Below are positions 16,715 to 24,073 of a stretch of 64,000 bases of DNA, one piece after another (position 1 is the stretch's first letter; each line of letters begins with the position of its first letter). The notes below the pieces were generated by a model, which worked only from the letters and a program-made list of their open reading frames with translations, was not told the DNA's origin and did not search any database. The stretch is from Eledone cirrhosa (lineage: Eukaryota), in assembly GCA_964016885.1 (NCBI GenBank), contig OZ024740.1:327174001-327238000 (forward strand), written 5' to 3'. The translations under genes were made by a program, and so were the position numbers.

Positions 16715-17270
16715 ACCAGAGGAGAAGGTGAGAGAGACCTAATTATAGTTATTTCTTAATTGTATTTTTCTATACATTCGTAACGAATCTATTCTCCACG
16801 GTGACGTCGCCAAGGCAACGTCTAAAACATCCTCAATGTTATAATTATGTGAGGTAAAAAAAAAAATCAATAAATAATTATCTGAAATACAGTATAGGTG
16901 TCATTAGCTGAGTAACTCTCAGTTTTCACAATCATTTATAAGTAGGAAGAAAACAGTAGCTTAACCATTCATTTAAAACGTCGCTTGAGGAAGGGTGCTG
17001 CTATGAACTCAAGTCATTTTTATGTTCACTTCTCAAACATTTCATTGAATTTCGTTAACTTTCGTATCGAATTCATGTAGATTATCTACGGCCTTCAATT
17101 TTCTCCCTCCCCTCCTCTCTCTTTATCTCTCTCTCTATCTCTCTATCTCTCGTTCTCTCTCCCTCTCTCTCTCTCTCTGCCTCTCGTTCTATCTCTGGCT
17201 CTGCCTCTCCTTTCTTAACTCATTGCTTGCCTGCCTAACAATCGATCAATCAATCAATCAATAGGTCTAC

Positions 17271-17359
<89 letters not shown>

Positions 17360-17473
17360 AATGTATGTATGTATAAAGGTACATACGTATATATGTCTGC
17401 CTGTATGTATGTACATCAAGCTAGACAAATAGATGTCTCTCTGGCCGCCTCTCTCTCTCCCATTTCTCTCTCT

Positions 17474-17583
<110 letters not shown>

Positions 17584-17669
17584 CAGAACAATATAGGAAG
17601 AAAAAACCCTTAATGTTTCGGACGTTATACATTACCTATCTACTTCTCTATTTATCTATCGATCAATCA

Positions 17670-17771
<102 letters not shown>

Positions 17772-19253
17772 CTTACTATCTAGCTATCCATCTATCTATG
17801 TATCCATTTATCTTCCAGCTTACATGTGATATTGACAAATTTGGCTAAGTTCTTATACCACGACTAGTCGAAAATTTTGATGTTTGCAGCAAACCCCTTC
17901 GTAGAAAATAAAACATTTTAAAAGTACTTTTGTTAGTAGCGAGCACATGGGCTTGTGCAGATATATATGAGTAAACTTACATTGCCATTACAACTATAAG
18001 TATTAAAAAATAATTATCAATGACAAAGAAAGAATCTTGCTCAAAGCAAACATTCTTGTTTCTAATCAAAATTTCTAAACTTTTATTAAATGGATATTGT
18101 TAATATATCATTCATGGTATCTCATTGTGGTATTGACAGTTACAGCGATTAGTCTATTAGACCGTGATTAGTCTATTAAAGTTTATATCACACTCGTGGA
18201 TATGCTGTCCTGTACAATAAAAAACACTATGAGAGACAATTCACAATTATATGAATTGGGAAAGACTTTCAAATTATGTCAGTTGAATTACATAAATTCA
18301 CGTTGGAAAATATTTTATATATATGTAGTTCACTTTCAAACGATGATTTTTACCATCTAAAATTTCTCAACATGAATTAAGGTTACTTGAAAATGATTAT
18401 ACACTGTAGCTTGAAAAATATGAAATATATATCGATGATATATATCGATGATATATATCATTGTATTGTATAACTATTTTTATTTTTATCATTCTGATGG
18501 TAAACAACTCTAATATATTTGCAATCGCCTATTTTTACATGTACAGACTAGCGAGGTTTCTGATGCATGGCCTTCAAACAATACATAACAAGATCCCATA
18601 AATCCAAACTTAGAAGACACGAATAGAGAGAATGATTCAGCTCTCAATATATTCCAAGGCCTTCGTATAAATATATAATTAACGTTTGGGAGACTGTTGT
18701 GTTGGTGGAAATTCACGGGATTTAATTAATTTTACAACTTTCATATTTCGATTGAAAACGGCATATTTATTGTGTTACATTATTGATATAGAAATCTTCA
18801 CGGAACAAATAGAACATAAATTACAATGCATTTTCCCGTAGGTTACCACATGCAACAAAGAGGTGTCGTAATGCATTTGCGTAATGCAACTTAAAGCTGT
18901 TCTCACAACGGAGGCTCTTGAAATATTTGCTGTCATTGTGTATATTATTGTGAAATACTATATATAAAATCTCATTGAACAAACACCAATTAGTGACAGA
19001 TTCAACAATAATATCCCCAAACAACCCAAACCTAAATACATAAAATCAATATATGGAGAATATATTAAACTTACTTTCTGTGACAATCGCTACAACCTTT
19101 ACACTGAATGGAAGGCATTTATAATTGAAATACAAAATATACTGCATCTGTTAGTCTATGATGGGCGTCTCGTAGACTTGGAACGTCGATACATACATAC
19201 TCAAGCATCTATATATGTATATATATATACATATATATATATATAAATATATG

Positions 19254-19358
<105 letters not shown>

Positions 19359-19477
19359 CGTATAAATATTTCGTATCTCCAAAGAAATACGGTTTTAGGA
19401 AGCCGTAGCTATGAAAACACCGGGGGGGGGGGGGGTCTGACGCCCTCTGGTGATGTCCAGCAGAAGCAAGGAGGACA

Positions 19478-19521
19478 ACCGTCTATGCATTTCAGGCTTA
19501 ACTGGCCTTCGTCAGGACGGT
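19478..19521 (-). ncRNA. Minimal type-I hammerhead ribozyme (minus-strand copy)
   Basis: Exact reverse complement of 19638-19681. Confidence 0.85.
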
Positions 19522-19637
19522 CCCTCCCACCGCTTGCGACTGCTGGACTAGAAGACAGGTGAGAATATATACTTTTCTCGTCTGTGTAAATGAGGTGATT
19601 AATCTCATTTGCATATGAAGTCGCAAGGGTGGGAGGG

Positions 19638-19681
19638 ACCGTCCTGACGAAGGCCAGTTAAGCCTGAAATGCATAGACGGT
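19638..19681 (+). ncRNA. Minimal type-I hammerhead ribozyme
   Basis: ACCGTC-CTGACGA-AGGC CAGTTAA GCCT-GAAA-TGCA-TA-GACGGT. Perfect 6-bp stem I, 4-bp stem II, palindromic TGCA loop III, predicted cleavage after 19675. Confidence 0.88.
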
Positions 19682-20048
19682 TGTCCTCCTTGCTTCTGCT
19701 GGACATCACCAGAGGGCGTCAGCCCCCCGGTGTTTTCATAGCTACGGCTTCCTAAAACCGTATTTCGTTGGAGATACGAAATATTTATACATATTGTATA
19801 TGCTTGAAGCGAAATCTTATTTCTTTTATATATATATATATATATACATATCGGAAGTTGTTTTTCGCTAATTCCAAAGCCGAAATACGATTCTCGTTAA
19901 TTTATATTTGTATATATACATATATGTATATACCTATATATGCGTGTGTCTGTATGCATCGAAGTTTTAAGGCTACGTATCGCTTATCATGTCTAAAACG
20001 TATCTAAAGCTGATATTGGAATATATATGTATAGATATGCGCGTGCGC

Positions 20049-20111
<63 letters not shown>

Positions 20112-21337
20112 TGAGGGAGAGAGAGGGTAGTGTGTGCGTGTTTGCGCGTATGTATATATATATATATAATGGAAAATTTGAACAGGAACAAAACAGAGAG
20201 GCAGTACAACGAATGTTTATTAATTTCACGCTCTGGAGAGTGGGTGGTGGTGGGGAACGACGTTTCGGGCATAAGCCCTTCCTTTTAGATATTAACTTGT
20301 CATAATATACCAAGTATTTTCAATAATGTATACATCTAAATTGTAAAGAATATGTTTAAAGATGTCTTTAGAAAATATTTTTAATATATTTGTTTAAGAT
20401 CACGGTCAACGAAGAAATAAACTGCTTGAAGAAGAAATATTTTTATAAAACAAAGAGAAAATTAGAACAGAGAACTCGCTTATTCAAAATTATTGAATGC
20501 TGTATAAAATAAATTGGAATTCCATACAAAGTAGGATAATTGGAGATTGCCTATTGATTCTTCGCTGAAAATTATGAAAGCTGTGTAATAGAGTAATGGA
20601 CCACTTGCAGCTTCTATACCTGTAGGACATTCTCTTCAGCCGTTTAAAACAATTTGTTTAATGCAATGGCAGATCTGATAAAGTTAAACATGGTAATTAT
20701 TATGAGCAAAATCAGTTGGCTTCTGGGGATTAATTATATTTGACAGTTGCACAGAGCCTCATTGTTGTTGTTGTTGTTGCTGTTGCTCTCGTCACCGCCA
20801 CCATTATTTTTCGCGTCACTGCCGCCGTCGTCGTCGTCGTCGTCAACGTCATCGTTGTTCCTGTCACGCCGTCGTCGATGTTGTTGTTTAACCCCATAAG
20901 AAATCTGAACGAGCAGATGCACGACCGAAGACGTTCCAGCCGTGACCAGCCTCGTGAATTGAAGGAAATTTATCTGCTGTCTCTAAAAATTTAAGCGACC
21001 ACGTTGAAGTTATTGTTTGTTTTGGCTGGTACTTACTGTAGTTCTATTAGACGGCATATCACACACATGATTACGCAGTCATGTATAATATACAACACCG
21101 AGAGATAAAGTTCGCTAATGTATTGGAATAATGAAAGAAATTCAATTTGTATCAGTTAAATTGCACAAATTGGAATGGTGTTCGTGAAATTTGATACATT
21201 TCACAGTCTTTCTTATTTTATGCCGATGGGTTATACTGTCTCTCTCTCGCACACACACACACACTCCCTCTCTCTCATTCACTCTCTATCTTTCTTTCTC
21301 TCTCTCTCTATATATATATATACAGTATATATATACA

Positions 21338-21414
<77 letters not shown>

Positions 21415-21515
21415 GTATGTATATATATATATGTATGTATATATATATGTATGTATATATACATGTATGTATATATATATGTATGTATATATATATGTAT
21501 GTATATATATATATG

Positions 21516-21580
<65 letters not shown>

Positions 21581-21688
21581 GTATGTATATATATATATAT
21601 ATGTATGTATATATATATATATTGAAACTTTAAGTTCTAATAATTTGTAATGTTGTCCCAACGCAAAATTCTGGACACAGATGAATAA

Positions 21689-21870
21689 TTGTTTCTACAT
21701 TTGGCACAAGGCCAGCAATTACCCAGTGTATTACTGGTACTTTATTTTATCGACCCCGTAAGGATGAAAGGCAAAGTTAACCCCGGCGGGATTTGAACTC
21801 AGAATGGCAAGGGCCGTAACTCTATGCGTCAAAACATGGCGTCCGACCCTCTACCGATACTGCCAATCCA
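21689..21870 (-). mobile_element. tRNA-derived SINE
   Basis: Near full-length reverse-complement copy including A box (TGGCAGTATCGG) and B box (GTTCAAATCC). Confidence 0.9.
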
Positions 21871-22438
21871 TAAATAATAAAGCAAGGAAACAATTTATAA
21901 CCACCCCAAGTAGAGCAGAAATTGGTGAAATTAAACACGAACTCAAGTTTAATACAGTTTGCAGTAAAAGTTTCATCTGAATCACAAACAAAACGTGAAA
22001 CTAAGGCGAAGAAAAAAAACACCGCTTCTTTTCTGGTAATAGTTTTTTATACAGGCATAAATGAAGTGATTGACAAGGAGAAGTTGCCAACACAGGTATA
22101 TGATATATGCAAAATCGACATCTGCAGGATTTGTATTCAGAACGTAAAGGGCCGAAACAAACACCACACGATATGTTTGCGACGCTCTGTAACAATTCTG
22201 TCAAACCACAAATAATAATAAAGTTACATAATAAATAAAGATAATGTTTAAAAATATGTTAATAATTTTAGAATATTGTGATGGTGATGATTATGATGTT
22301 GATGGTGATGATTATGATGTTGATGATGATAATGATGATGTTGGTGATGTTGAATATGATGATGATGATGATGATGATTATGATATCAATAATTAAGAAA
22401 AGAAATTAGAATAAAAATCTAAATAGTTTAGTACTCAC

Positions 22439-22674: not shown

Positions 22675-22855
22675 TCTTCTTCTTCTTCTTCTTCTTCTTC
22701 TTCTTCTTCTTCTTCTTCTTCTTCTTCTTCTTCTTCTTCGCCCACTTATTACTGAGAGGGTCATGGGGGCAGAGTCCTCAAACACTCCTTCCAGCGCTTC
22801 CTGTCAGATACAACTGTCTCCAACTGATCCGGCTGATTTCCAAAACGAGACTAGC
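22675..22855 (-). mobile_element. RTE-like LINE 3' end with (GAA)n tail
   Basis: Minus strand ...GACAGGAAGCGCTGGAAGGAGTGTTTGAGGACTCTGCCCCCATGACCC...TAAGTGGGC(GAA)n. Confidence 0.55.
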
Positions 22856-22896
22856 CAAGCTCATTTTATATAAATAAATGCATTTGAAATGTATTT

Positions 22897-24073
22897 GTAA
22901 ATAAACTTGTAATACTCTTTAAGTAAACTTCTAATACCCTTTAAGTAAACCTGTAATACTCTTTAAGTAAACTTGTAATACCCTTTAAGTAAACTTGTAA
23001 TACTCTTTAAGTAAACTTGTAATACTCTTTAAGTAAACTTGTAATACCATTTAAGTGACCTTGTAATACCATTTAAGTAAACTTGTAATACTCTTTAAGT
23101 AAACTTGTAATACCATTTAAGTGACCTTGTAATACCATCTAAGTAAACTTGTAATACTCTTTAAGTAAACTTGTAATACTCTTTAAGTAAACTTGTAATA
23201 CTCTTTAAGTAAACTTGTAATACCCTTTAAGTAAACTTGTAATACTCTTTAAGTAAACTTGTAATACTCTTTAAGTAAACTTGTAATACCATTTAAGTGA
23301 CCTTGTAATACCATTTAAGTAAACTTGTAATACTCTTTAAGTAAACTTGTAATACTCTTTAAGTAAACTTGTAATACTCTTTAAGTAAACTTGTAATACC
23401 CTTTAAGTAAACTTGTAATACCATTTAAGTAAACTTGTAATACTCTTTAAGTAAACTTGTAATACTCTTTAAGTAAACTTGTAATACTCTTTAAGTAAAC
23501 TTGTAATACTCTTTAAGTAAACTTGTAATACCCTTTAAATAAGCTTGTAATACTCTTTAAGTAAACTTGTAATACCCTTTAAGTAAACTTGTAATACCAT
23601 TTAAGTAAACTTGTAATACTCTTTAAGTAAACTTGTAATACCCTTTAAATAAGCTTGTAATACTCTTTAAGTAAACCTGTAATACTCTTTAAGTAAACTT
23701 GTAATACCATTAAGTAAACTTGTAATACCATTTAAGTAAACTTGTAATACTCTTTAAGTAAACTTGTAATACTCTTTAAGTAAACTTGTAATACTCTTTA
23801 AGTAAACTTGTAATATTCTTTAAGTAAACTTGTAATACCCTTTAAATAAGCTTGTAATACTCTTTAAGTAAACCTGTAATACTCTTTAAGTAAACTTGTA
23901 ATACCATTAAGTAAACTTGTAATACTCTTTAAGTAAACTTGTAATACTCTTTAAGTAAACTTGTAATACTCTTTAAGTAAACTTGTAATACCCTTTAAGT
24001 AAACTTGTAATACTCTTTAAGTAAACTTGTAATACTCTTTAAGTAAACTTGTAATACCCTTTAAGTAAACTTC
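22897..24073. repeat. 22-bp minisatellite (TAATACTCTTTAAGTAAACTTG), roughly 53 copies
   Basis: Direct reading. Variants CTCT/CCCT/CCAT, GTGACC and AATAAGC. Confidence 0.97.

Follow-up and report, generated by a model that had tools for sequence, protein, structure and literature searches.

Positions 19360 to 19827 of the window analyzed here, a 64,000-nt stretch of Eledone cirrhosa DNA, are in our judgment likely to be an insertion of a hammerhead retrozyme, both of whose inverted arms were made by a Penelope-type reverse transcriptase (RT) from both strands of the target. The element is best read as a family-level member of a new non-LTR retrozyme family, for which circle, cleavage and expression are predicted. 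The locus is probably an ordinary dead copy of a Penelope-type inverted insertion. Published work on Penelope elements already includes inverted copies, tails and hammerheads on opposite strands; what the case adds is a set of counts bearing on mechanism.

The locus and the 325-nt family

A sequence-only reading of this DNA had described inverted arms that each contain an intact hammerhead, and this was borne out. The arms, at 19360-19541 and 19619-19790, align over 172 columns, of which 171 pair; they also differ by a single 1-nt gap and by 9 nt in the length of a run of C, and both carry ACCGTC-CTGACGA-AGGC-(CAGTTAA)-GCCT-GAAA-TGCA-TA-GACGGT, a complete minimal type-I hammerhead. The hammerhead call at the locus was made by pattern match and folding: a generic type-I pattern run over the whole 64 kb matched only at 19638-19681 (+) and 19521-19478 (-), and an Rfam search of 17000-22000 gave no hammerheads among 30 matches at E<=1. 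The features of the locus are as follows, with unit positions counted from the ribozyme cut.

19200..19359, left flank: target microsatellite, (TA)n then (GT)10
19360..19620, minus strand, left arm: 5'-truncated copy of the 325-nt unit (about 184-325, then 1-117), ending at site A with no tail
19478..19521, minus strand: hammerhead identical to that on the plus strand, predicted cut between 19484 and 19483
19542..19618, minus strand: unpaired part of the left arm (the spacer of the sequence-only reading), two short hairpins of the unit
19619..19620: head-to-head junction, a 2-nt overlap common to both arms
19619..19827, plus strand, right arm: 5'-truncated like the left (about 268-325, then 1-161); it carries the tail and ends at site B
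19638..19681, plus strand: minimal type-I hammerhead with a 6-bp stem I, a 4-bp stem II and a 1-bp stem III with palindromic ATGCAT, predicted cut after 19675
19791..19827, plus strand: Penelope-type tail, between end sites A and B
19828..19850, right flank: target microsatellite, (TA)n

The predicted plus-strand cut agrees with the sequence-only reading. The spacer that had been treated as separate is left-arm element sequence, and the right arm runs through the tail to about 19827, the tail of this copy being without 6 nt that are present in other copies. Neither strand contains a whole unit or two ribozymes, and no ORF of at least 200 aa was found at the locus. Sequence reads over 18500-21000 (three runs, one sample) were deep on the element and stood at 2-8 on the unique flanks, figures that do not represent copy number; none of the reads in these three runs, their kind being unrecorded, spanned the junction at the locus. 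Elsewhere in the window we noted a 22-nt minisatellite (22766-23900) and a cluster of non-LTR retrotransposon frames of up to 1150 aa with RT-like motifs (36000-57300), the latter unrelated to the retrozyme.

The ribozyme 45-mer occurs in 246 exact copies in the 3.0-Gb genome and its reversed control in none, so the motif is not due to chance. A looser ribozyme pattern gave 470 matches and a 22-mer from the tail 1062. Given the median divergence of 3.3% in the family (143 arms), we estimate about 1,000 ribozyme copies in the genome. The description of the element as young holds in part: it suits the studied locus, where 1 of 103 non-ribozyme sites is different between the arms, and less so the family, with its median of 3.3%.

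The repeat unit has a period of 325 nt and is arranged head-to-tail. At related loci the tail runs on into the spacer in partial dimers arranged head-to-tail, two-motif tandems occur (for example at L003), and copies re-enter the same 325-nt unit on both sides with no ORF. Retrozymes are taken here to be repeats 150-450 bp long, arranged head-to-tail, with a type-I hammerhead in each of at least two consecutive units; such consecutive units are found in the family, not at the studied locus. A 325-nt unit with a type-I hammerhead and no coding capacity accords with a non-LTR retrozyme, and no ORF with RT and GIY-YIG domains was found at the locus or adjoining the unit in the loci read. Folded as a circle, the unit has a predicted energy of -105.5 kcal/mol, compared with -73.8+/-6.0 for 60 shuffles. 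The one long array found has 10 units (L284:3131-6433) and includes a 5-unit higher-order duplication, and all 10 of its units carry a private change in stem I that keeps the pairing as U-G. Since this variant is absent from 142 dispersed readings, the array was rejected as the source of the dispersed copies.

In the available text of Cervera and de la Pena 2020 (PMC7229834), metazoan non-LTR retrozymes likewise are non-coding tandem units with one type-I hammerhead each, present as dispersed monomers or dimers plus an array, with a structured predicted circle, and the axolotl HHR_Amex1 shares the 1-bp helix III with a palindromic tetraloop. Known descriptions, as far as the sources available to us go, are of tandems only, whereas most copies here are head-to-head pairs with a Penelope tail. 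The same paper reports retrozyme circles and names Penelope elements as candidate mobilizers, and the accessible part of Li, Clavereau and Pollet 2026 (bioRxiv 10.64898/2026.07.22.740005) treats retrozymes as non-autonomous Penelope derivatives and reports that 1 of 9 dimers was cleaved in vitro; PMC11722881 is cited among the background on known systems. In these accounts the link between retrozymes and Penelope elements consists of co-occurrence and pLTR homology, while here it consists of an insertion footprint and no homologous pLTR was found in 50 GIY-YIG loci.

Predicted behavior of the ribozyme

The sequence-only reading had taken the palindrome as a mini-element whose transcript could switch between dsRNA and self-cleavage; such a switch, with a regulatory role, we consider very improbable. 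Both motifs are intact at the locus, and a transcript reading through it would plausibly form long dsRNA, as a duplex of roughly 170 bp. In folding models, however, stems I and II, which pair with a probability of 0.91-1.00 without the other arm, fall to 0.00 in an RNA read through from either side or ending just past the motif; in the natural dimer the corresponding values are 0.28-0.72. Each strand carries one motif, and minimal hammerheads with a 1-bp helix III and palindromic loop are reported to need a second one (PMC4209133 and PMC7229834, available text). The junctions are also locus-specific. The sections of PMC4209133 available to us describe minimal hammerheads with the same core, 6-bp helix I, 4-bp helix II and palindromic helix III, as well as dual opposite-strand motifs 100-700 bp apart in Schistosoma.

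The hammerhead cores of the copies decay neutrally: in unselected copies (n = 52), 18 of 572 core positions were changed against 57 of 1768 other ribozyme positions, and the rest of the unit was changed at 4.2%. Counted by hand, the first 100 of the 470 matches included 20 with a core change and 3 more with a change at N7 only. Selection on the cores was not seen in the copies, where they changed at background rate, and the recurrent variants included no covariation in the ribozyme stems. No recurrent subfamily variant fell in the core, weak evidence that the source copies kept it. Nor was the suggested A-to-I signal seen, as copies had no A-to-G excess (153 A>G versus 210 T>C in element sense) and the one arm of the set with at least 4 A>G also had 6 T>C; no editing footprint was seen in the templates. 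With the ribozyme predicted to be buried in read-through RNA, neutral cores and no editing footprint, the switch fails in silico.

Inverted pairs, their ends and their template

Two sets of loci were examined for architecture. Set 1 was made up of the 85 loci that contain the first 100 ribozyme matches (of 246), chosen regardless of shape; 63 of these loci were head-to-head, 21 single-orientation and 1 complex, with 0 simple tail-to-tail. Set 2 was made up of the 84 loci that contain the first 100 tail matches of 1062 (66 new, 18 in set 1; in 2 loci the script picked another cluster), with 58 head-to-head, 24 single, 1 weak tail-to-tail and 1 complex. Several of the loci scored as single carry a very short inverted stub. 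In the head-to-head loci of set 1 the junctions were distinct in 61 of 63 (6-nt bins), with overlaps or gaps mostly of 0-4 nt. The palindrome is thus not the element, the unit being the 325-nt tandem monomer. A palindromic master was rejected on the same junctions. A MITE or fold-back element with fixed TIRs is opposed by these junctions, by the tail that sets the two ends apart and by the single-orientation loci (21/85). At one locus (L074:1110-2566) two identical inverted pairs adjoin, through local duplication or an assembly artefact.

Copies have their outer 3' ends at one of two fixed sites, A at about 117 nt and B at about 158 nt after the cut (40 nt from each other), and one A end is paired with one B end in 69 of 72 callable pairs (42/44 in set 1 and 27/28 in new loci), a count that omits the 33 of 105 head-to-head loci with an uncallable end (19/63 + 14/42). 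With the first end-caller the figure was 43 of 47 (p=1.4e-9). TA tracts flank both sides in 65 of 105 pairs, and 4 more have clear target duplications of 9-14 nt; a further insertion (L018) lies in the end of another element with a duplication of about 12 nt. The one-arm tail, head-to-head inversion, TA targets and 9-14-nt duplications uphold the view that the element is non-autonomous and Penelope-related. At A ends of the first set a (CA)n tract stood between the site and the TA target in 12 of 64 cases, against 1 of 62 B ends, an excess not repeated in new loci (2/36 A versus 2/54 B); such a tract is also present at 19340-19359 of the window, and telomerase-like stutter of the RT is a possible origin.

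Our family shares with EN+ Penelope-like insertions (PMC8557442, Fig. 2 legend; PMC3846280), whose tail measures 30-40 bp, the head-to-head inversion, a tail at a single end, target duplications (9-14 nt here), microsatellite targets and a hammerhead about 120-160 nt upstream of the ends. In what we have of it, PMC8557442 reports the inverted 5'-truncated copy, the tail often at one end and a microsatellite bias, the mechanism being given as undefined; PMC3846280, likewise consulted in part, reports 8-10-bp duplications and a prevalence of head-to-head copies, with a model of antisense self-priming. The present elements differ from these in that there is no ORF, the whole element being a circularly permuted 325-nt unit, and in that the size of the family allows the pairing of ends, the independence of the arms and the sharing of a template to be counted.

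The two arms of a pair share subfamily variants (42/43, 44/46 and 26/29 concordant at three sites, more weakly so at four others), while at the CpG site 105 they were not concordant (p=0.34). Arms within a locus differ by 5.3% versus 6.6% between loci, which argues against wholesale later conversion. Across 168 loci, minor variants were shared between arms at 0.0112 per site for the same round and 0.0092 for the other round, between rounds of one arm at 0.0102, and between loci at 0.0024, so that two rounds of one arm have variants in common about as often as two arms (p=0.36), and four times as often as separate loci. Of 114 clean arms, 41 were longer than a single unit, and 3 of 99 passages ended at the cut, with 3.3 expected. 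These long arms and the lack of a pile-up at the cut led us to reject as template the linear monomer left by cleavage. The best fit is a circle; a tandem transcript in linear form, if homogeneous, would lead to the same sharing of variants. A cluster of summed arm lengths at 500-610 nt (15/33, p=0.0002, in a window picked after looking) was dropped, as it did not recur in independent loci (9/26, p=0.24).

The extents of the two arms are uncorrelated (rho -0.03, n=59), and the tail-less A arm reaches further 5' in 37 of 59 pairs. These data bear on a different origin for the inverted arm, in which the family and mobilizer are the same and the second arm arises by antisense self-priming (fold-back) and the tail by endonuclease trimming (PMC3846280, PMC8557442). 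That origin would explain the head-to-head polarity, the shared variants and the short junction overlaps, and a few junctions, overlapping by 11-26 nt, are indeed within hairpins of the unit, but we consider it unlikely. The arm-length data weigh against it, pairs symmetric to within 30 nt numbering 4 of 59 versus 7.4 by permutation, and one mixed pair (L071, below) is not a fold-back. Fold-back of target-primed cDNA, for which the tail-less arm must be nested in the tailed one, is excluded by the uncorrelated arms and the longer A arm.

Less probable again, and quite doubtful in our view, is that the unit is the pLTR of an unsampled autonomous Penelope element, or that a linear uncleaved tandem is copied, with no circle and the ribozyme a passenger. 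It accords with the available text of PMC11167929, where hammerhead mutants do not impair insertion in vitro, and with the lack of selection on cores in the copies; only 50 of many GIY-YIG loci, moreover, were read. Against it, copies that extend past the tail or upstream of the ribozyme re-enter the 325-nt unit and not an ORF, variant sharing is as frequent between rounds of an arm as between two arms, and the 10-unit array is shown by its variant (10/10 versus 0/142 dispersed) not to be the source.

A candidate mobilizer and Penelope insertion

Returning to the insertion by priming on both target strands, we propose the following course. A tandem transcript of the unit, which is head-to-tail and has no long ORF, would self-cleave as a double hammerhead and be ligated to a circle, by analogy with published retrozymes. 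Insertion is at TA tracts or with 9-14-nt duplications, and copies end at two sites separated by 40 nt, inverted pairs having one end at each. A TA target nicked on both strands would provide the primers, with synthesis from one strand beginning at site A, and from the other at site B, on the same RNA, probably a circle. The two cDNAs would then be extended separately, running beyond the cut and in many cases for more than a full turn, stop at unrelated points and have their far ends joined through overlaps of 0-4 nt. The enzyme would most likely be supplied by a Neptune-type family, NepB. The studied copy, in which neither strand has two ribozymes or a whole unit, is on that account predicted to be a dead end, its ribozyme buried in a long duplex; the locus is probably a dead by-product, with mirror halves likely made anew at each insertion.

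In the available text of PMC11167929 (Frangieh et al. 2024), a Penelope-type protein extends both target strands in vitro, two internal start sites delimit the tail, and a protein-assisted hammerhead is not needed for insertion. The PAc Poseidon system of that paper thus shares with our family the two start sites, the AT-rich target and the both-strand extension. There the strands are alike in start-site use and, in that text, inverted pairs are not addressed; here each arm has one site of its own. More tentatively, and with somewhat less than an even chance of being right, we suggest that the inverted repeats and the tails of Penelope elements arise together in a single reaction, in which an RT dimer starts from both target strands on one RNA circle; each subunit would have to use a different start site, and the dimer could even take up two different RNAs, as in the mixed pair of NepB and the unit. 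On this view the circle of an animal retrozyme is copied by a Neptune-type enzyme with which it has no detectable shared sequence. The A+B pairing could also come from asymmetric trimming. A full-text search, with subscription papers and supplements mostly outside it, found no proposal of two-strand priming for Penelope inversions.

Long frames with RT and GIY-YIG domains (Penelope ORFs) are present in the genome. We scored 150 of 10,596 candidates in a GIY-YIG survey, for which the family labels NepA-NepF were coined, and the autonomous families with a cysteine linker read as Neptune-type by the description in PMC8557442. Among inverted pairs of autonomous Penelope elements, A+B ends were seen in 8 of the 10 pairs shown, 2 being uninformative, and in NepB all 9 of 9 head-to-head partners, among 30 NepB loci, were A+B. 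The linkage of the element to RT/GIY-YIG ORFs expected earlier was not found: by blastn, 50 GIY-YIG loci had no match to the unit beyond matches in the C run, none of the 30 NepB loci holds the 325-nt unit, and alignments of the ends with 10 other 3' ends were not significant (tail versus NepB, p about 0.1). In three of 151 sampled loci, nevertheless, the unit is joined directly to a 3' piece of NepB, without an intervening TA tract. In two of these (L052, L107) the NepB piece lies in the same orientation at the A site of the unit, and the third (L071) is a mixed head-to-head pair with a NepB arm at its A site and a unit arm at B. At some six further loci TA tracts lie between the unit and Penelope ends, and one (L045) has a direct one-sided junction of the unit with NepF; because of these, nested insertion is a real alternative, and one-sided junctions can arise otherwise. 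Together the sequences suggest, at a little over even probability, that NepB is the supplier of the enzyme.

Several observations concern the Penelope families themselves. On the minus strand of the window, 20169-20300 is the 3' end of another very high-copy Penelope-type family, 350 nt from the element; it has a degenerate minimal hammerhead (stem II GGGC/GCCC, GAAACGTC), ends in a TA tract and resembles the NepC tail at its end. By eye, six autonomous Neptune-type loci (L146, L151, L152, L158, L164, L165) have U3-A8-like core variants with a CCGG loop III, and another (L149) has a C3-G8 core with a GTAC loop. The core of the 325-nt unit is the canonical C3-G8, whereas most autonomous families read in this genome are, by eye, U3-A8-like. 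In NepB loci (L254-L283) the 5' boundaries pile up at query positions 294 and 307, perhaps as an effect of how the query aligns.

The family is of interest because the origin of tandem and inverted structures and of the tail is called undefined in PMC8557442, and because retrozyme papers propose, without demonstrating it, mobilization by Penelope enzymes. The counts obtained here (the A+B rule, independent arms, shared template and copying past the cut and around the unit) favor priming of both strands on a circle over fold-back. The family offers a small substrate, together with a candidate enzyme, by which Penelope insertion could be tested directly and, if the proposed course is true, the 325-nt family would be a natural minimal substrate of a Neptune-type Penelope enzyme.
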